A program made the position numbers and the translations under genes. From contig JAFWBP010000016.1 in assembly GCA_017507045.1 (NCBI GenBank), positions 231 through 64,230 of the forward strand: DNA of 64,000 nt, written 5' to 3'. The notes beneath the pieces were generated by a model. It was given only the letters and a program-made list of their open reading frames with translations. It had not been told where the DNA came from and searched no databases. The DNA is from Clostridia bacterium (lineage in GTDB: Bacteria; Bacillota; Clostridia; Christensenellales; Borkfalkiaceae). Positions within the stretch are counted from its first letter, which is position 1, and each line of letters begins with the position of its first letter. Of this stretch, positions 43,733 to 52,659 are shown one piece after another.

Positions 43733-44656
43733 ATGATACTTTCAGTGTGCATGAGTCCGAGTGTGGATGTCACCATAGAGCTCGATTCGCTCAACGTTGG
43801 GAAGACGAACGTTGTGAAAAGCAAATCGCTTTCCTTTACGGGGAAAGCAATCAACGTGGCAATCGGCGTGGCGCGCCTAGGTGAGGCGGTGCAAGCAACG
43901 GGCTTTATGTACAGCGAAAACGGCGCGATGTTCGAGCGTGCGCTCGAAAAAGAGGGCGTTCCTTACGCCTTCGTCGGCTGTGAGGGCAGAGTGCGTGAGA
44001 ATTATAAGATCATTGATCAGCGTTCCATGCTCACCGAGATCAACGACGTAGGCGCGCGCATCGGCGCGGATAAGCTTGTGGAACTCATGCAGGTGGTGCG
44101 CGATCGCTCTTCAGAGGCGAACGTTACCGTTATCTCAGGCGGGCTTCCCCGCGGCGTGGAAACAAGCTATTACCGTGAGATTCTTCGCGCGGTCGATCGA
44201 AGATCTTTGCGTATCGCGGATACTACGGGCGCAAAGATGTTTGCGGCACTCGAGGCGGGGGTGGATCTCGTGAAGCCCAACCGCGAGGAGCTTGAGGAAT
44301 CGCTGGGCCGCACGCTCAGAACGAAAGAGGATATTCTTTCCGCCTGCCAAGAGCTGATAAGCCGCGGTGCCAAAACGGTGCTTCTCTCCCTCGGAAAGGA
44401 TGGTGCCGTTATCACCAACGGTACGAACAGCTATTATTGTAAGAGCATCAACGTGGCGGTCAACTCTACGGTTGGTGCAGGTGACGGTATGGTTGCGGCA
44501 GCAGCCGTGATGCTGCAAAAGGGGGCCGATTTGCCCGATATCCTGCGCGCCGGCGTTGCGGCAGGCACGGCAACGGTTACCACTTTCGGCACAACATCCT
44601 TTACAAAAACGAAGTATGAAGAGGTGTTCTCCAATCTCTCCGTTACACAGTTTTAA
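43733..44656 (+). CDS. PfkB-family sugar-phosphate kinase (1-phosphofructokinase / tagatose-6-P kinase-like)
   Basis: N-terminus NPSVD-like (MSPSVDVT), GKAINVA, and the C-terminal GAGDGMVAA anion hole. Confidence 0.8.
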   Translation: MILSVCMSPSVDVTIELDSLNVGKTNVVKSKSLSFTGKAINVAIGVARLGEAVQATGFMYSENGAMFERALEKEGVPYAFVGCEGRVRENYKIIDQRSMLTEINDVGARIGADKLVELMQVVRDRSSEANVTVISGGLPRGVETSYYREILRAVDRRSLRIADTTGAKMFAALEAGVDLVKPNREELEESLGRTLRTKEDILSACQELISRGAKTVLLSLGKDGAVITNGTNSYYCKSINVAVNSTVGAGDGMVAAAAVMLQKGADLPDILRAGVAAGTATVTTFGTTSFTKTKYEEVFSNLSVTQF

Positions 44657-44735
44657 TTGCGTGATACCCGAAACGTCGCGTGTAACGTTTGCGCCCTTTG
44701 TTTCACATGCGCAAACCGTATAAAATGAACCTTGA

Positions 44736-44784
44736 CCACAAGATATAGTGGCATTAAAAAGATTATAATGCAAAATATGGTGCC
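44736..44784 (+). promoter_or_regulatory. Putative tandem NrdR boxes upstream of nrdDG
   Basis: CCACAAGATATAGTGG (44736-44751) is a good match to the NrdR palindrome. TGCAAAATATGGTGCC (44769-44784) is weaker. Their centres are about 33 bp apart. Confidence 0.5.
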
Positions 44785-44790
44785 AAACGC

Positions 44791-44820
44791 TTGACAGCGG
44801 CACGATAAGAATGTTATAAT
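44791..44820 (+). promoter_or_regulatory. SigmaA promoter of nrdD with extended -10
   Basis: TTGACA, an 18-nt spacer ending in TGT, then TATAAT (44815-44820). Confidence 0.65.
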
Positions 44821-44911
44821 AAATGCGTTCCCATCCGGGGAACGCTTCTTTTCTTTGCTTTACAAAATGGCAAAAAAAGGGTTACGCAGAAGAAAAAAAG
44901 AGAGGTGTATC

Positions 44912-47083
44912 ATGAAAATTATAAAGAGAAACGGTACGGAAGTCCCTTTCGATATTGAAAAGATTTTGAACGCTATCCGCAAGGCGAATAACGAAGTCAG
45001 CGAGGGAGCACGGCTCACCGAGGAGCAGATCACGGGAATTGCGCAAAAAGTTACGGCGCTTGCAGGTGATCTCAACCGAGCTGTAAATGTTGAAGAGATC
45101 CAGGATTTCGTGGAGAACCAGATCATGGATCAAAAGGCGTTCTCCGTTGCAAGAAAGTACATCACGTATCGCTATACACGTTCGCTCGTCCGCCAGTCGA
45201 ATACGACGGACGCGCAGATCCTCACGCTCATCGAGTGTAACAATGAGGAAGTGAAGCAGGAGAATTCCAATAAAAATCCCACGGTCAATTCCGTTCAGCG
45301 CGATTATATGGCAGGCGAAGTCTCGAAAGATCTCACGCGCCGCATTCTGCTTCCGCCCGATATCGTAGAGGCGCACGATGAGGGAATTCTGCACTTCCAC
45401 GACGCCGATTACTTTGCGCAACACATGCACAATTGCGACCTCGTAAATTTGGAGGATATGTTGCAGAACGGCACCGTTATCTCGGGAACTTTCATCGAAA
45501 AGCCGCATTCCTTCTCCACGGCGTGTAACATTGCAACGCAGATCATCGCGCAGGTCGCTTCCAATCAGTACGGTGGGCAGAGCATTTCTCTCACGCACCT
45601 CGCGCCTTTCGTAGATATCAGCCGCAAAAAGATCCGCGCCGAGGTTGCCGCAGAGCTTGCCGGAGTAGGCGTTTTTGATGAAGAGCAAATTGCAAAAATC
45701 GCTGAAAAGCGCCTTCGCGACGAGGTTAAGAAGGGAATTCAAACGATTCAGTATCAGGTGGTAACCCTTCTCACAACGAACGGTCAGGCTCCCTTCGTTA
45801 CCGTGTTCATGTATTTGGGTGAAGCACGCAGCGAGCGTGAGCGCGGCGATCTTGCCATGATCATCGAGGAAACGCTTCTTCAGCGCATTCAGGGCGTAAA
45901 GAATGAATCGGGCGTGTGGGTAACGCCTGCCTTCCCCAAACTGATCTACGTTCTTGAAGAAGATAATATCCGCGAGGGTAGCAAATTTTGGGATCTCACC
46001 GTGCTGGCTGCAAAGTGCACCGCAAAGCGCATGGTTCCCGATTACATCTCCGAGAAGAAGATGCTCGAATACAAAAAGGATAAGAACGGCGAGGGGCATT
46101 GCTACACCTGCATGGGTTGCCGCAGCTTCCTCACGCCTTACGTGGATGCAGAGGGCAAGCCGAAGTATTACGGCAGATTCAATCAGGGTGTTGTAACGAT
46201 CAACCTCGTTGATGTTGCGCTCTCCTCAAAGGGCAACGTGCTCGATTTTTGGACGATCTTTGATGAACGCCTCGATCTTTGCTATCGCGCCCTCCTCGAG
46301 CGCCACAACCGCCTCAAGGGCACGCTTTCCGATGCGGCGCCCATCCTTTGGCAGTACGGCGCGCTTGCACGCCTCAAGAAAGGGGAGACGATCGATAAGC
46401 TCCTCTACGGCGGCTATTCCACGATTTCCCTCGGCTTTGCAGGCCTTTACGAGTGCGTGAAATATATGACTGGTAAATCGCACACCGATGAAGAGGCGAA
46501 GCCCTTCGCACTCGCCGTGATGCAGCACATGAACGATAAATGCAAGGAGTGGAAGGAAAAGCACAAGATTGATTTCTCGCTCTACGGCACGCCGCTTGAA
46601 AGCACCACCTACAAGTTTGCTAAGGCGCTTCAGAAGCGGTTCGGCATCATTCCGGGCGTAACCGATAAGAACTATATTACCAACAGCTATCACGTGCACG
46701 TTTCCGAACCGATCGATGCATTCACCAAGCTCAAGTTTGAGAGTGAATTCCAGCAGCTCTCGCCGGGTGGCGCGATCTCCTACGTGGAAGTTCCCAACAT
46801 GCAGGATAACATTCCTGCCGTGCTTGCCGTGATGCAGTATATCTACGATAACATCATGTACGCCGAGCTCAACACCAAGAGCGATTATTGCCAGGTGTGC
46901 GGCTACGACGGTGAAATCGCCATCGTGGAAGAGGATAACAAGCTCCTTTGGGAGTGCCCGCACTGCAAGAATCGCGATCAGAATAAGATGAACGTTGCAC
47001 GCCGCACCTGCGGTTACATCGGCTCGCAGTTCTGGAATCAGGGCAGAACGCAGGAAATCAGAGATAGAGTTTTGCACCTTTAA
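44912..47083 (+). CDS. nrdD: Anaerobic ribonucleoside-triphosphate reductase
   Basis: ATP-cone N-terminus (MKIIKRNGTEVPFDIEKI), a C-terminal Zn-ribbon (CxxC...CxxC) and the glycyl-radical motif RRTCGYIG. AGAGGTG RBS. Confidence 0.95.
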   Translation: MKIIKRNGTEVPFDIEKILNAIRKANNEVSEGARLTEEQITGIAQKVTALAGDLNRAVNVEEIQDFVENQIMDQKAFSVARKYITYRYTRSLVRQSNTTDAQILTLIECNNEEVKQENSNKNPTVNSVQRDYMAGEVSKDLTRRILLPPDIVEAHDEGILHFHDADYFAQHMHNCDLVNLEDMLQNGTVISGTFIEKPHSFSTACNIATQIIAQVASNQYGGQSISLTHLAPFVDISRKKIRAEVAAELAGVGVFDEEQIAKIAEKRLRDEVKKGIQTIQYQVVTLLTTNGQAPFVTVFMYLGEARSERERGDLAMIIEETLLQRIQGVKNESGVWVTPAFPKLIYVLEEDNIREGSKFWDLTVLAAKCTAKRMVPDYISEKKMLEYKKDKNGEGHCYTCMGCRSFLTPYVDAEGKPKYYGRFNQGVVTINLVDVALSSKGNVLDFWTIFDERLDLCYRALLERHNRLKGTLSDAAPILWQYGALARLKKGETIDKLLYGGYSTISLGFAGLYECVKYMTGKSHTDEEAKPFALAVMQHMNDKCKEWKEKHKIDFSLYGTPLESTTYKFAKALQKRFGIIPGVTDKNYITNSYHVHVSEPIDAFTKLKFESEFQQLSPGGAISYVEVPNMQDNIPAVLAVMQYIYDNIMYAELNTKSDYCQVCGYDGEIAIVEEDNKLLWECPHCKNRDQNKMNVARRTCGYIGSQFWNQGRTQEIRDRVLHL

Positions 47084-47152
47084 TTCACGGATTTCTCATT
47101 CGTAGCTCCTTGTTGGGTAATTACGGCAAGAAATTTTGTGAGAGGATAACGC

Positions 47153-47674
47153 ATGAACGTTGCAGAAATTAAAAAAACAGATATCGCGAACGGAGAGGGA
47201 GTACGCGTCTCCCTCTTCGTTTCAGGTTGCACGCGGCACTGCAAGAACTGCTTTAACTCCGTTGCGTGGGATTTTAACTATGGCAGGCCCTTCACCGAAG
47301 AGGTGGAAAGGGAAGTTCTCGAAGCGCTTGCGCCTGAATTTATCGCAGGGTTAACGCTGCTCGGAGGCGATCCCTTCGAGCCTTCCAACCAGCGCGGATT
47401 ACTGCCTTTTGTAAAAAAAGTGAAAGAGCGTTTTCCGCAAAAGAATATTTGGTGCTACACCGGATATACTTACCAAGATGGGGAAATTCGCGAGCCGCAC
47501 GCACGCTGTGAGGTAACGCGCGAACTTATTTCCATGCTCGATGTGCTGGTAGACGGAATGTTCATCGAAGAATTGAAGGATATCCGCCTGAAATTCCGTG
47601 GTTCTTCCAACCAACGCGTAATCGACGTGCAAAAAACCTTGAAGGAAGGAACAATTCAACTCTATTTATCATAG
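47153..47674 (+). CDS. nrdG: Anaerobic RNR activating radical-SAM protein
   Basis: GCTRHCKNCFN (CxxxCxxC) and GGDPF. Confidence 0.93.
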   Translation: MNVAEIKKTDIANGEGVRVSLFVSGCTRHCKNCFNSVAWDFNYGRPFTEEVEREVLEALAPEFIAGLTLLGGDPFEPSNQRGLLPFVKKVKERFPQKNIWCYTGYTYQDGEIREPHARCEVTRELISMLDVLVDGMFIEELKDIRLKFRGSSNQRVIDVQKTLKEGTIQLYLS

Positions 47675-47796
47675 CTCCTCCAACAGAGGAGCTATCTCCG
47701 TATGATGGGGCGTGTAAAAAAATCCGCAACACCGTTTTAGCGGCTTCCCTTTCAAGCGAAAATCCAAAAAATACATTTACAACATGAGGTGATATT

Positions 47797-49026
47797 ATGA
47801 ATAAAACACAACTTAAAAAGTATGCAAGGCTACTCGCCAAGGTGGGCGTGAACGTAAAGCGCGGGCAATGGGTTATCGTGCAAGCGGAACTCGATCAGCC
47901 TGAATTCGTGGAAATGTGCGTGGAAGAACTCTACCGCGCAGGCGCAGGAAAGGTTACCGTTGAATGGTCGCACCAGAACCTTGTTCCTCTGCACTATAAG
48001 CACCAAAAGCAGGCGAGCCTTGAGAAATTCGAAAAGTGGGAGATCGAGAAGCTTGAGCTGCGCAAAAAAGAGCTTCCGGCAATGCTCTACCTCGAATCCT
48101 CCAATCCCGATGGGCTTGCAGGAATGGATCAGGAAAAGTTCACCGCCGTTCGCAGTTCGCGCACGAAGGTGATAAAGCCATACCGCGATGAGATGGAGAA
48201 TAAGTACCAGTGGTGTATCGCCGCAGTTCCCGGTGAAGCGTGGGCGAAGAAGGTATTCCCTGACTTAAAGCTCGGCAATACCGCCGTGAATAAGCTTTGG
48301 GATTGCATTTTAGAGGCGGCGCATGCAGAGGGATCCGATCCCGTGCGCGAATGGATGCGCCACAACGATGATCTGGCACAGCGCTGCGATAAACTTAATC
48401 GCCTCAAGCTCGTTTCGCTCGAATATAAATCCTCCAACGGTACCGATTTCAAGGTTGGGCTCATTGAAAACAGCGAGTTCAAGGGCGGCGCAGAGGAGAC
48501 GATCGAGGGCGCCATTTTCAATCCGAACATTCCCTCTGAAGAGATTTTCATCTCTCCGAAAGCCGGGGTTGCAGAGGGTATTGTGTATTCCACGAAGCCG
48601 CTTTCCTATCAGGGCGAGCTCATTGAGAACTTCTCTCTCCGTTTTGAAGGCGGAAAGGTTGTTGAAGTGAAGGCAGAAAAGAACCAGCATCTCCTCGAAA
48701 AAATGGTATCCATGGATGAGGGTGCGCGAATGCTCGGCGAGTGTGCACTGATCGCCTACGATTCTCCCATTAACAATCAGGGTATCCTCTATTACAACAC
48801 GCTGTTCGATGAGAATGCAAGCTGCCACCTTGCGCTTGGAAGGGGCTTCAACGAGTGCGTGCGAGGATTCGAAACTATGTCGCTCGAGGAACTGCACGAG
48901 AAGGGCATCAACGATAGTATGATTCACGTTGATTTCATGATCGGCTCGAAGGATCTCGAAATTGTAGGCGTTACGAAGAACGGCGAACGCGTGAAGATTT
49001 TTGAAAACGGCAATTGGGCAATATAA
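47797..49026 (+). CDS. M29-family aminopeptidase (PepS/AmpS type)
   Basis: LKKYARLLAKVGVNVKRGQ...; about 410 aa, the typical family length and pattern. Confidence 0.85.
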   Translation: MNKTQLKKYARLLAKVGVNVKRGQWVIVQAELDQPEFVEMCVEELYRAGAGKVTVEWSHQNLVPLHYKHQKQASLEKFEKWEIEKLELRKKELPAMLYLESSNPDGLAGMDQEKFTAVRSSRTKVIKPYRDEMENKYQWCIAAVPGEAWAKKVFPDLKLGNTAVNKLWDCILEAAHAEGSDPVREWMRHNDDLAQRCDKLNRLKLVSLEYKSSNGTDFKVGLIENSEFKGGAEETIEGAIFNPNIPSEEIFISPKAGVAEGIVYSTKPLSYQGELIENFSLRFEGGKVVEVKAEKNQHLLEKMVSMDEGARMLGECALIAYDSPINNQGILYYNTLFDENASCHLALGRGFNECVRGFETMSLEELHEKGINDSMIHVDFMIGSKDLEIVGVTKNGERVKIFENGNWAI

Positions 49027-49038
49027 TAAAGAGGTAAT

Positions 49039-50157
49039 ATGATTCAAATTGATATCTTTTCGGGCTTTTTGGGAGCTGGGAAAACAACGCTCATCAAAAA
49101 GCTCATCAAGGAGGGTTACGCAGGGGAGAAGGTCGTGCTCATCGAAAATGAGTTTGGTGAGATCGGCGTAGACGGCGGTTTTTTAAAGGACGCCGGGATT
49201 GAAATCACTGAAATGAATTCGGGATGCATTTGCTGTTCGCTCGTTGGCGATTTCTCCAAGGCACTCAAAGAGGTTGCCCAAAAGTTTGCCCCCGAGCGCA
49301 TCGTAATTGAGCCTTCAGGCGTTGGTAAGCTTTCCGATGTGATCAAAGCCGTTCAACAAGCCGAAGTTCCCGAAAGCAGGCTGAACGCCTTCTGCACTGT
49401 TGTAGATGCAAAAAAGTGCAAGGTTTATCTTAAAAACTTCGGCGAATTTTTCCTCGATCAGGTGGAAAACGCCAGCTGCATCGTCCTCTCTCACACGGCT
49501 GATCCGAAGAAAGTTGCTGAGGCCGTGGCGCTTCTCAAAGAGCATACGAACGCTACGATCGTGACAACCGATTGGGATTCACTCGATGGAAAGGAAATCC
49601 TTTCCGCCATGCAAAGAACGGATTCTTTGCAAACCGAGATTGAAAAACTTGCCGCAGAGGCGCACGCGCACCATCACGAGCACGAACATCATCACCATCA
49701 TGAAGATGAAGGGTGTGATGATCCTCACTGCCACTGCCATCATCACCACGAGCACGGCGAACACGATTGCCACCATCACGAGCACGAACATCATCACCAT
49801 CATGAAGATGAAGAGTGTGATGATCCTCACTGCCACTGCCACCATCACCACGAGCACGGCGAACACCATCACGAGCATCATCATGCTGATGAGATCTTCA
49901 CGAGCTGGGGCGTTGAGACGGCGAAACGCTTTACGCAAGCCGAGCTCGAAGGCGCACTCGCGGCGCTCGCTTCCGGCGAATACGGACAAGTTTTACGTGC
50001 AAAGGGCATCGTAGATGGCGAAAATGGCTGGCTGTACTTTGATTACGTGCCCGATGAAGCAGATGTTCGTACGGGAACGCCTGCCGTTACAGGAAGGCTT
50101 TGTGTGATCGGGTGCGATCTCAAAGAAGAGAAATTGAAGGAGCTCTTTTTGAAATAA
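49039..50157 (+). CDS. COG0523 (CobW/ZigA/ZNG1-type) metallochaperone GTPase with internal His/Cys-rich cassette
   Basis: GFLGAGKTTLI P-loop, GCICCS (CxCC), and a cassette of more than 70 aa (HHHEHEHHHHHEDEGCDDPHCHCHHHHEHGEH...). It starts 12 nt after the aminopeptidase. Confidence 0.85.
   Translation: MIQIDIFSGFLGAGKTTLIKKLIKEGYAGEKVVLIENEFGEIGVDGGFLKDAGIEITEMNSGCICCSLVGDFSKALKEVAQKFAPERIVIEPSGVGKLSDVIKAVQQAEVPESRLNAFCTVVDAKKCKVYLKNFGEFFLDQVENASCIVLSHTADPKKVAEAVALLKEHTNATIVTTDWDSLDGKEILSAMQRTDSLQTEIEKLAAEAHAHHHEHEHHHHHEDEGCDDPHCHCHHHHEHGEHDCHHHEHEHHHHHEDEECDDPHCHCHHHHEHGEHHHEHHHADEIFTSWGVETAKRFTQAELEGALAALASGEYGQVLRAKGIVDGENGWLYFDYVPDEADVRTGTPAVTGRLCVIGCDLKEEKLKELFLK
49669..49872. repeat. 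Two tandem 102-bp units (34 aa) encoding the His/Cys-rich cassette, plus a partial third
   Basis: Units start at 49669 and 49771 and differ at only a few positions. Confidence 0.9.
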
Positions 50158-50158
50158 T

Positions 50159-51106
50159 ATGCCCAAGGAAATACCCGTTTACCTCTTTCTCGGATTTTTA
50201 GATGCGGGGAAGACGAAGTTTATCCAAGAAACGTTTGAGGACGAGCGTTTCGATGATGCAAACGAACGTACGCTCCTGCTTGTGCTTGAAGAAGGAGAGG
50301 AAGAATTTGATCCTTCACGCTTTGCTGTTAAAAAATGTGCATTGGAAATCCTTCCGCAAGAAGAACTCACGCTCGAGCGGCTCACGGCATTGCAAAAAAA
50401 ACACAAACCGCAACGCGTTGTAGTGGAATACAACGGAATGCTCACACTCGATGCGCTTTTTGATGCAATGCCGGATGGTTGGATGATCACGCAGGTGATG
50501 ACATTTTTCGATGCCGCCACCTTCAAAAGATACAATCAGAACATGCGCCAGCTCGTATTCGATAAGCTGCAATATGCCGATATGGTGGTATTCAACCGCT
50601 TTCAAGATGATTTTTCACAGGAAGAGTTCCATAAAACCGTGCGCGGAGTAACCAGAAGGGCGAACATCGTGTACGAATACGTTGGCGGAAAGGCGGTATT
50701 TGATGAAATCGTGGATCCGCTTCCCTTCGATATTGACGCAAAGATCATTGAAATTGCCGATCGCGATTACGCATTTTTTTACCGCGATCTCGTGGAAGAA
50801 ACGCCCAAATATGCGGGAAAAATCGTCCGCTTTAAGGGGCTCGTAGCCATAGACGGCAAAATGAAGAGTGGAACGATCGTTGTTGGAAGGCATGTGATGA
50901 CGTGTTGTGAAGCGGATATCGCCTACAGTGGGCTCGTTTGTCTGCACGCTTCCAATCTTCCGCTGAAAATGCGCGATTGGGTAATGGTGACCGCCAGAAT
51001 CGATATAGAGCGCCATCCCATTTACGGGCAAGAAGGTCCGGTGCTCAAGGCAACCTCCCTTGACTATGCGCCACCGCCCGAAGATGAGCTTGCAACATTT
51101 TATTAA
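50159..51106 (+). CDS. COG0523-like GTPase paralog lacking CxCC, fused to a DUF1980/TIGR03943-like CC-motif C-terminal domain
   Basis: GFLDAGKT P-loop, no CxCC. The C-terminus (GRHVMTCCEADIAYSGLVC...DWVMVTARI) resembles the (R)F.MTCCAADA signature. It starts 1 nt after the preceding stop. Confidence 0.6.
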   Translation: MPKEIPVYLFLGFLDAGKTKFIQETFEDERFDDANERTLLLVLEEGEEEFDPSRFAVKKCALEILPQEELTLERLTALQKKHKPQRVVVEYNGMLTLDALFDAMPDGWMITQVMTFFDAATFKRYNQNMRQLVFDKLQYADMVVFNRFQDDFSQEEFHKTVRGVTRRANIVYEYVGGKAVFDEIVDPLPFDIDAKIIEIADRDYAFFYRDLVEETPKYAGKIVRFKGLVAIDGKMKSGTIVVGRHVMTCCEADIAYSGLVCLHASNLPLKMRDWVMVTARIDIERHPIYGQEGPVLKATSLDYAPPPEDELATFY

Positions 51107-51191
51107 ACGATAAAATACGTGAACTGGAAATGTATATTTTCCTGTGATTTACAGGAATATGCATAGTCTATGACCGAATATCGATATAGTG

Positions 51192-51218
51192 ATCCCTCGA
51201 CATGCCCGAGGGATTTTC
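51192..51218 (+). terminator. Intrinsic terminator of the pepS-COG0523 operon
   Basis: ATCCCTCG acatgcc CGAGGGAT followed by TTTTCTGTTT. Confidence 0.75.
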
Positions 51219-51270
51219 TGTTTCTTATGAAAATAATTATAAAAATTACTAAAAAAATTCATTTTTAATA

Positions 51271-51299
51271 TTTACATTTCCGGAAAAGTATGATATAAT
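51271..51299 (+). promoter_or_regulatory. SigmaA promoter of the flavodoxin gene (extended -10)
   Basis: TTTACA, a 17-nt spacer ending in TGA, then TATAAT. Confidence 0.65.
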
Positions 51300-51321
51300 A
51301 CAATCAATGGAGGAAATTACC

Positions 51322-51795
51322 ATGAAAACTCTCGTCGTTTATTATTCCCTCGGCGGAAATACGCGCGCCGTTGCACGCCGTATCGCCAGAGCTCTCAAAG
51401 CGGACGTGCTTGAAATCCGCACTACTAAAACTTATCCCGATGACGTTGACGTGCTCCACGGGCTTGCGCAGCAAGAAGTGAAAACGGGGTATATTCCTCA
51501 GCTTCACCCTTATCGCGTTGATTTTGATAAATACGATGCGATCGTTTTGGGAACGCCCGTGTGGTGGTCTACTTTCGCGCCTGCAATGAAAACGTTCATG
51601 AAAGGCAAGGATTGGAAGGGCAGAAAGGTATTTCCGTTCACGACGAACGGCACCACGATTGGTCATACGCCCAGCGATTTCCGCAAGGCATTGAAGGGTG
51701 CAGAAGTTGCGCCTATACTCAGTGTGCAATTTGAGGATCGCGTGCAGGTTACGCCTGAAAACATTGTTAAGGCGTGGCTTGAACTCATTGGCTAA
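51322..51795 (+). CDS. Flavodoxin-family protein
   Basis: MKTLVVYYSLGGNTRAVA...LGTPVWW. GGAGGA RBS before the ATG at 51322. Confidence 0.85.
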   Translation: MKTLVVYYSLGGNTRAVARRIARALKADVLEIRTTKTYPDDVDVLHGLAQQEVKTGYIPQLHPYRVDFDKYDAIVLGTPVWWSTFAPAMKTFMKGKDWKGRKVFPFTTNGTTIGHTPSDFRKALKGAEVAPILSVQFEDRVQVTPENIVKAWLELIG

Positions 51796-52659
51796 ATGCT
51801 GGAAGGTCTACTTCTCGCTGAATACGGCGAAAGTATTGCACAGCAGATTGCAGACGGCTACTCATATGAGCACCCGGTAACCGTGCGCATTAACACCTTG
51901 AAGGCAGATGTCGGCGAAGTGTGTTTTGCGTTTGCTGAAAAGGGGATTTCCGTAAGGCAAGTCCCTTGGTATTCAAGTGCGCTCATTCTCGAAAACATAG
52001 CGGAAAGCGCCGTGGAAAAAACCCCTCTCTACGCAGAGGGGAAAATTTATATGCAGAACCTTTCCTCCATGTTACCGCCGCTCTATCTTGAGCCGAAGGC
52101 AGGGGAGAACATTCTCGATATGACGGCGGCGCCGGGCGGAAAGACTTCTCAGATCTATGCGCTTTCCGAGGGGAAGGCGCTCGTTACCGCATGCGAACGA
52201 GATAAAATCCGTTACGAGAGGCTGCTTTTTAATCTCCGCCGGCAAGGGGCTACGCGTGTTTCCACACTAAAATTGGATGCAGCTACGCTCGATGATTTTC
52301 TTTCCTTTGATAAGATTTTGTTAGATGCGCCCTGTAGCGGAAGCGGAACGGTAACGCCTACAAATCCCATTCGTTTTTCCGTGGAATACCTGAAAAAGTG
52401 TGTGAAGGCGCAGGAAAAGCTCTTAAAAAAGGCTTTAAGGCTTTTAAAAAGGGGCGGAACGCTTGTGTATTCCACCTGCTCCGTGCTTAAGGAAGAGAAT
52501 GAAGAGCTGCTCAAGCGCATTCTTCCGCAGGCCGGTGCGCAAATTGTGCCCATTGAACCGTTTGAAGGAATACCAACGCTTCCATCCTTAGAGGGAACGG
52601 TTGCCGTGCTTCCCACCGAGCTTTACGAGGGCTTCTTCGTGGCAAAAATCACAAAATAA
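51796..52659 (+). CDS. RsmB/RsmF (NOL1/NOP2/Sun) family RNA m5C methyltransferase
   Basis: DMTAAPGGKTSQI, LDAPCSGSGT and YSTCS. Confidence 0.85.
   Translation: MLEGLLLAEYGESIAQQIADGYSYEHPVTVRINTLKADVGEVCFAFAEKGISVRQVPWYSSALILENIAESAVEKTPLYAEGKIYMQNLSSMLPPLYLEPKAGENILDMTAAPGGKTSQIYALSEGKALVTACERDKIRYERLLFNLRRQGATRVSTLKLDAATLDDFLSFDKILLDAPCSGSGTVTPTNPIRFSVEYLKKCVKAQEKLLKKALRLLKRGGTLVYSTCSVLKEENEELLKRILPQAGAQIVPIEPFEGIPTLPSLEGTVAVLPTELYEGFFVAKITK

Follow-up and report, generated by a model that had tools for sequence, protein, structure and literature searches.

Does a bacterial COG0523 GTPase that is encoded directly behind a metallo-aminopeptidase serve that enzyme, or do the two stand together through local gene order? 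The question is raised by three genes in a 64,000-nt stretch of a Clostridia bacterium genome (contig JAFWBP010000016.1 of assembly GCA_017507045.1), here called the window, which corresponds to contig 12 of a source genome of 1.21 Mb in 17 contigs (98.9% complete). Animal guts are the source of the nearest public loci, which carry the labels Candidatus Gallimonas or uncultured Clostridia/Christensenellaceae. All three genes lie on the forward strand. The first, pepS (positions 47797..49026, 409 aa; PF02073), encodes an M29 aminopeptidase of the PepS/AmpS/AmpT type; the second (49039..50157, 372 aa; PF02492, PF07683) encodes a canonical COG0523 GTPase of the G3E group; and the third (50159..51106, 315 aa; PF21537, PF02492), here called the fusion gene, encodes a G3E P-loop domain without a CxCC motif joined to a DUF1980_C OB-fold domain. 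The intergenic gaps are 12 nt and 1 nt, and a terminator-like hairpin of the intrinsic type (51191..51215, + strand; 9-bp stem with five GC pairs, tail TTCTGTTTCT) closes the unit. A first-pass annotation of this DNA had taken the arrangement to be a dedicated aminopeptidase-metallation system analogous to ZNG1-METAP1. Little is known about which clients bacterial COG0523 proteins serve and how they work (PMC11672702), and a conserved chaperone-client operon would be a direct handle on such clients; this locus is probably not one. The conserved unit across gut Clostridia is the obligate pair of the COG0523 gene and the fusion gene. With moderate confidence we read this pair as an autonomous two-gene G3E module that a lineage-specific gene order has set behind an ordinary pepS.

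Conservation of the COG0523-fusion pair

Related loci were collected by scanning one genome per species with a 10-sequence alignment of the fusion protein, which yielded 80 loci with relatives at 49-77% identity. In essentially all of these loci that have room for it, the gene directly before the fusion gene is an ortholog of the COG0523 gene, with 61-84% identity over the G-domain; linked pairs number about 75, in genomes labelled Christensenellales, Oscillospiraceae, Acutalibacteraceae, or Monoglobaceae. The gap between the two genes is mostly -14 to +24 nt, and they are probably translationally coupled. The loci are labelled Gallimonas, Scatosoma, Coproplasma, Acutalibacteraceae, Ruminococcus (including R. 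flavefaciens), Oscillospiraceae, and Monoglobaceae. In a survey of the window's own family (120 genomes in 23 genera, numbered g1 and so on), the fusion gene and the COG0523 ortholog co-occur in the same 10 of the 23 genera; about 11 of the others have neither gene, one has a fragment, and one has only a COG0523 gene of 31-35% identity.

The genes upstream of the pair vary by lineage and include M29, EF-G, a penicillin-binding protein, class II fructose-bisphosphate aldolase, DUF2188, and others; GH88 is also found among the changing genes around it. These differing upstream neighbors, together with a promoter-like site ahead of the COG0523 gene in relatives, speak for an autonomous pair. We found no description in the searchable literature of a canonical COG0523 protein that is obligately paired with a degenerate G3E/DUF1980_C protein.

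The two G3E proteins

The COG0523 protein consists of a cobW domain (PF02492, E 6e-35) and a CobW_C domain (PF07683, E 7e-8), and its closest solved relative is YjiA. Its Walker A motif (P-loop) GFLGAGKT (aa 9-16; 49063..49086, + strand) is at least 95% conserved in 64 orthologs. The CxCC metal-binding motif, C63-I-C-C66 (49225..49236, + strand), aligns with GCICCS of YjiA and is conserved in the same 64 orthologs. In the translated CobW_C domain we found an RxKG motif, R320-A-K-G323 (49996..50007, + strand), which is reported to be the arginine-finger "self-GAP" (GTPase-activating protein) element of COG0523 C-terminal domains (PMC13001444, 2026 preprint). Of the 93 aa of the His/Cys-rich linker, 40 are His and 7 are Cys, and the medians over the 64 orthologs are 35 His, 6.5 Cys, and 89 aa; a His-rich linker is ancestral to the whole subfamily. 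Part of the linker length in the window is supplied by a 102-bp tandem duplication (49669..49866, + strand; 1.9 copies with 97% match in Tandem Repeats Finder). Among the orthologs the linker ranges from 36 to 128 aa, so the region expands and contracts readily. The linker region also breaks assemblies, and contig ends fall inside it in several relatives. The protein scores far under the cut-offs of all NCBIfam equivalogs (CobW, YjiA-type, ZigA), CobW ranking best, and it is thus a member of none of the named subfamilies. It is the sole true COG0523 protein of the source genome; another cobW-like pair, on contig 6, was rejected when it turned out to be Ffh and FtsY. A metallochaperone role for this protein is reasonable.

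The fusion protein matches the cobW profile weakly (PF02492, E 2e-8) and DUF1980_C more strongly (PF21537, E 2e-18) over its C-terminal 120 aa. Against TIGR03943 it reaches 66.2 bits, under the cut-off of 88.8, with profile positions 93-220 (the C-terminal part) matched only. Its P-loop GFLDAGKT (aa 12-19; 50192..50215, + strand) is kept, G12, G17, and K18 being invariant in an alignment of 40 diverse members. No CxCC is present in the protein, where the site reads EYNGM and is kept so across the same 40 members, and neither a PF07683 CobW_C match nor an RxKG motif was found in it. The OB half carries the motif MTCCEAD (50897..50917, + strand; M247, C249, C250, D253), which is at least 90% conserved and is preceded by an invariant R244. 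Other invariant or near-invariant residues among the 40 members are E44/G46, E90/N92/G93, and N146/R147, and the counterpart of the G4 motif is an invariant N-R. In the AlphaFold2 model (mean predicted local distance difference test score, pLDDT, 93.7) the N-terminal half matched YjiA, HypB, and MeaB/ArgK-type G3E NTPases by Foldseek, and the C-terminal half matched OB folds (the AspRS anticodon-binding domain, Ten1/Stn1, and SSB). From these features the fusion protein would be a diverged paralog that has kept the P-loop, has lost the CxCC and the GAP-type C-terminal domain, and has an OB-fold domain instead.

The family of the fusion protein is large: clustering at 90% identity gives at least 8000 clusters, and clustering at 50% identity gives 270 with E < 1e-30. 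Its members are named "GTPase" or, misleadingly, "TIGR03943 family putative permease subunit" in the databases. A metagenomic ORF of 583 aa (P0271) joins a relative of the fusion protein to MFS transporter domains, and five ORFs of 607 aa join relatives to Big_2-like domains; all of these may be gene-calling read-throughs. We found no functional literature on DUF1980, TIGR03943, COG3689, or YcgQ. The pair ties an uncharacterized domain, DUF1980_C, to G3E NTPases.

Most of what the first-pass annotation had said of the three genes was confirmed. The layout of a PepS-type M29 gene, 12 nt, a COG0523 gene, 1 nt, a third gene, and a terminator was reproduced from the ORFs and the hairpin at 51191-51215. 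Its description of the second gene as a COG0523 protein with an intact CxCC and a huge His/Cys cassette agrees with the domains, with C63-I-C-C66, and with the 40 His and 7 Cys of the linker. The third gene had been called a second COG0523 paralog; the 1-nt gap stands and the protein has a G3E P-loop domain, but it lacks CxCC, CobW_C, and RxKG, and its other half is DUF1980_C.

The aminopeptidase and its linkage to the pair

The pepS product matches Peptidase_M29 (PF02073) over the full length of the profile (E 2e-156, positions 2-406 of 406). Over its whole length it aligns with the solved structures of PepS (PDB 4ICQ), AmpS (1ZJC), and AmpT (2AYI) at E values of 1e-82 to 7e-90, the last of these for PepS. 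The PSEE(I/V)F, GECAL, FDENAS-HLA, and HVDFMIGS blocks are identical to those of 4ICQ in the alignment, and we take these four blocks to carry the binuclear-metal ligands of the solved PepS, AmpS, and AmpT. M29 enzymes possess a binuclear Zn/Co site. The profile and the solved structures agree with the earlier assignment of the gene to PepS-type M29, and by its sequence the product is an ordinary binuclear-metal M29 aminopeptidase with nothing unusual about it. It is the one M29 copy of the source genome.

The order M29-COG0523-fusion is kept in 24 of 24 sampled genomes of the same genus. At the level of the family, M29 is found in all 23 genera and lies directly upstream of the pair in only three of the ten pair-bearing genera (g1, g22, and g23; in two g23 cases the locus is split by contig ends within the His-rich region). 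Elsewhere the M29 gene is 75 kb (g25) or 26 kb (g37) from the pair, on other contigs or 210 kb away (g26), or on other contigs (g29). In some g28 genomes it lies 2.8 kb downstream, with a P-type ATPase gene of opposite orientation in between; in one g38 genome it lies two genes downstream, after an ArsR-family gene; and g27 has only a divergent M29-like gene of ~370 aa, 3.5-9 kb off. Since M29 is present in all 23 genera and the pair is absent from about 11 of them, those genera run the same enzyme without the pair. Outside the family but within the order, none of four M29 orthologs (36-39% identity) has a COG0523 gene within ~5 kb. Across the class, 150 evenly sampled genomes were searched with an M29 threshold of E <= 1e-60; adjacency of M29 and COG0523 was seen in none of the 31 M29-bearing genomes, 10 of which have some COG0523 gene. 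About 28 genomes in this sample carry the orthologous COG0523 gene, and one of them also has an M29 match, on another contig. A fusion search found no long protein joining M29 to COG0523, which is a weak negative.

In a tree of the concatenated COG0523 and fusion proteins, the rows with adjacent M29 split into two well-supported clades, one with 7 Gallimonas-like and one with 8 Scatosoma-like rows. Both fall inside one supported clade of 20 rows, together with 5 Coproplasma-like rows without M29. The adjacency requires one or two changes of state on this tree, and its supported branches would allow a single origin, so that the comparative support for a functional link to M29 amounts to about one evolutionary event. 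Conservation of the M29-COG0523 neighborhood, checked in the family and in the class, is thus confined to one small lineage, and this largely undercuts the view of the pair as a dedicated M29-metallation system.

Two side observations concern the M29 genes and their surroundings. In the Scatosoma-like clade (L019 1448-6749; L027, L028, L032, L037, L039) the pair closes a one-strand run of peptide and amino-acid catabolism genes in the order RNase J, O-methyltransferase, U32 peptidase, asparaginase, M3 oligoendopeptidase in some loci, and M29. Pair-less genera mostly have two or three M29 genes, the canonical one and a divergent form of ~370-380 aa, and genera in which M29 adjoins the pair have a single M29; with kinship not controlled for, this may be lineage history or a real trade-off.

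The three genes had also been described as co-transcribed. No terminator was found between them in the window, the 12-nt gap included, and co-transcription of M29 with the pair is plausible in the source genome. However, a promoter-like TTGAAA-15-TATAAT lies over the end of the M29 gene (49001..49027, + strand), a match to consensus only, read directly from the sequence, with a spacer too short for the promoter scan, and the homologous site of a relative (L014) reads TTGAAC-16-TATAAT, a 10/12 sigma-70-like match. The M29-COG0523 spacer of relatives is 24-134 nt long and often contains a TATA(T/A)A element; in the closest relative (L013) this spacer forms a strong GC hairpin. A separate promoter for the pair probably exists as well, or once existed, which would fit an autonomous module.

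Upstream of M29 are nrdD (44855-47083) and nrdG (47153-47674), preceded by a promoter scoring 12/12 at 44791. The nrdG-M29 intergenic region (47675..47796, + strand) contains a hairpin that lacks a T-run, but no canonical promoter, and the promoter and terminator scans gave no match in it. Six relatives (L014-L017, L020, and L025) have a terminator after nrdG and TTGAC-17-TATAAT before M29, so that the unit starts at M29 there; both signals are missing in the window (47655-47796) and in L013. M29 may be read through from nrdDG in the source genome, and the loss of both signals suggests that the nrdDG operon of this reduced genome has come to include pepS and the pair. The next gene past the terminator encodes a flavodoxin and has its own strong promoter at 51271-51299.

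Metal context, rival explanations, and known systems

The earlier remark that no Zur box stands upstream of the unit was borne out by motif scans. No Zur-box-like site was found near the pair in the window or in the 80 loci; the cores of Bacillus-type Zur, Fur, and AdcR sites were absent from 36 upstream regions, in which k-mer counts returned TATAAT-like words only; and a Zur-box scan allowing three mismatches gave scattered matches at no consistent position. There is no Zur box because the source genome has no Fur/Zur-family gene (PF01475); it has no ZnuA-type binding protein either. Zur control is common among COG0523 proteins without being a defining trait of them. No Rfam element was found at 44000-52000, and 10 related loci gave tRNAs only. 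In Ruminococcus flavefaciens a ZntA/CadA-type P1B ATPase gene (TIGR01525, 543 bits; L079 9068-11614, - strand) lies convergent to the pair, 132 nt downstream of it, and a P1B ATPase gene is also convergent downstream of the pair in a close relative of this species (L085); this is the only metal-transport neighbor that we saw. In one genus the gene behind the pair is of the ArsR family. Both neighbors are thin hints of the metal, and neither ArsR-family nor P-type ATPase neighbors recur across the 80 loci. By family precedent the metal is most likely Zn(II), and the His-rich linker leaves Ni or Co possible. The occurrence of the module in very small gut genomes (1.2 Mb here) without Zur or ZnuA makes it a candidate core metal-handling element.

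It is unlikely that the pair is a dedicated GTP-dependent Zn/Co metallation system for apo-PepS, a bacterial analogue of ZNG1-METAP1. The 12-nt gap without a terminator speaks for such a system, as do the binuclear Zn/Co site known for the M29 family, the intact PepS (4ICQ) motifs, and the persistence of the trio in the 24 same-genus genomes, in g22 and g23, and through a change of the upstream flank; a neighboring client is also plausible a priori, given how little is known of bacterial COG0523 clients (PMC11672702). All of this has to be set against an adjacency limited to one sub-clade and compatible with a single origin, seven pair-bearing genera without the arrangement, about 11 genera with M29 and neither gene of the pair, and the class sample, in which most pair-bearing Clostridia have no M29 match at E <= 1e-60 and none of the 31 M29-bearing genomes shows adjacency. 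The four M29 orthologs of other families without a nearby COG0523 gene and the missing M29-COG0523 fused protein point the same way, and the COG0523 protein of the window begins straight at the P-loop strand, without an N-terminal extension able to hold a ZNG1-type docking motif. With the linkage unconserved, the comparisons lend little support to the ZNG1-METAP1-like proposal of the first-pass annotation, although a client relation specific to this lineage may exist. Quite improbable, in our judgment, is a module that serves Ni or Co with a client elsewhere in the genome, by analogy with HypB, UreE/UreG, CooJ, and CobW. The extreme His content of the linker (40 of 93 aa here, subfamily median 35) would fit it, but His-rich stretches are known in zinc-linked COG0523 proteins too. 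The genome lacks Zur, ZnuA, and a Zur box and hence any link to a low-zinc regulon, CobW is the best NCBIfam match of the COG0523 protein (far under the cut-off), and HypB is among the structural matches of the fusion protein; yet no Ni/Co enzyme or transporter stands beside the pair in any locus, and its only metal-transport neighbor is the Zn/Cd-type P1B ATPase of Ruminococcus.

The DUF1980_C domain brings in a further explanation, in which the fusion protein is a soluble remnant of the DUF1980/TIGR03943 "permease subunit" and the pair supplies or controls a metal transporter in the membrane. The database name carried by some members and the long ORF with MFS domains (P0271) agree with this, as does the DUF1980_C match itself, but we regard it as very unlikely. 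An ArsP_1/PF03773-type permease, which we take to be the partner of YcgQ-type subunits by the case of B. subtilis ycgQR, is missing from the source genome; the fusion protein matches TIGR03943 at positions 93-220 only and has no N-terminal membrane part; ~13 classical DUF1980 loci in a 200-genome sample of the phylum have no COG0523 gene within 1.5 kb; no transporter is a conserved neighbor of the pair; and the lone MFS fusion may be a gene-calling artefact. The autonomous two-gene module that we prefer has points against it as well. Its neighbors in different lineages include zinc enzymes (M29, M3 peptidase, class II aldolase, RNase J, and NrdD), which could be real, shifting clients or chance. 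The trio stays intact across two upstream flanks, which differ between the two M29-adjacent clades (nrdDG in one, asparaginase or M3 oligoendopeptidase in the other), and two further genera include genomes with M29 at 2-3 kb from the pair, so that some functional tie to M29 may exist within the family. Both proteins depart from the canonical G4 base-specificity motif: the COG0523 protein has SHTAD (SHTD in the subfamily consensus) against TKTD in YjiA, with His in place of Lys, and the fusion protein has FNR. The nucleotide preference of both may therefore differ from that of standard GTPases. The fusion search returned no protein joining COG0523 to its partner, again a weak negative, and the heteromer, metal binding, and nucleotide hydrolysis are predictions from sequence.

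Under the autonomous-module reading, the COG0523 and fusion proteins would act together, probably as a heteromer. The COG0523 subunit would supply an RxKG-activated GTPase and the CxCC site, nucleotide turnover in it would control metal binding and release, and its His/Cys linker would be a probable metal-collecting or metal-buffering arm. The fusion protein would contribute a second P-loop domain, and its Cys-Cys OB domain could be a second thiolate site or a docking surface for recipients. The gene neighborhood does not specify these recipients; M29 may profit as one metalloenzyme among several and would not be the defining partner of the module. A more specific version, which we put forward tentatively and consider doubtful as it stands, is an undescribed heteromeric metallochaperone of gut Clostridia with DUF1980_C as a hand-off or client-docking element and PepS as one client in the Gallimonas/Scatosoma lineage. 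If it were true, DUF1980_C would gain a first function. The strong conservation of a COG0523 protein with a degenerate Cys-Cys OB-fold paralog suggests that some COG0523 systems are two-protein machines.

Compared with known systems, the aminopeptidase resembles PepS, AmpS, and AmpT end to end, conserved blocks included, and shows no notable difference from them. The likeness to ZNG1-METAP1 lies in the combination of a COG0523 protein with a metallo-aminopeptidase, and the idea of GTP-driven transfer would be the same. ZNG1, however, docks via an N-terminal CPxLxP motif onto the zinc finger of METAP1 (PMC11672702). Here the COG0523 protein starts at the P-loop strand, M29 has no such zinc finger and is unrelated to the METAP (M24) family, and the gene linkage is unconserved. 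With the characterized COG0523 proteins (YjiA and YeiR of E. coli, ZigA/MigC of A. baumannii, ZagA/YciC of B. subtilis, and CobW) the window's protein shares the full architecture of G-domain, CxCC, variable His-rich linker, and CobW_C with RxKG. It differs from them in falling under the equivalog cut-offs, in having no Zur control, and in a G4 motif that is SH(T)D-like and not NKxD or TKTD; it is also constantly paired with a degenerate paralog, which is undescribed for those characterized members that we could find. The C-terminal 120 aa of the fusion protein resemble the DUF1980/TIGR03943 proteins (the B. subtilis YcgQ-type putative permease subunit), including Cys-Cys-x-x-Asp, but a G3E NTPase domain occupies the place where the membrane part stood, and the score stays under the cut-off. 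Its N-terminal fold is like that of HypB, UreG, and MeaB, with which the pair would share the concept of two G3E subunits on one metal. Those proteins are homodimers with the metal site at the dimer interface, whereas here the two subunits would be different paralogs, one of which carries the canonical metal motif.

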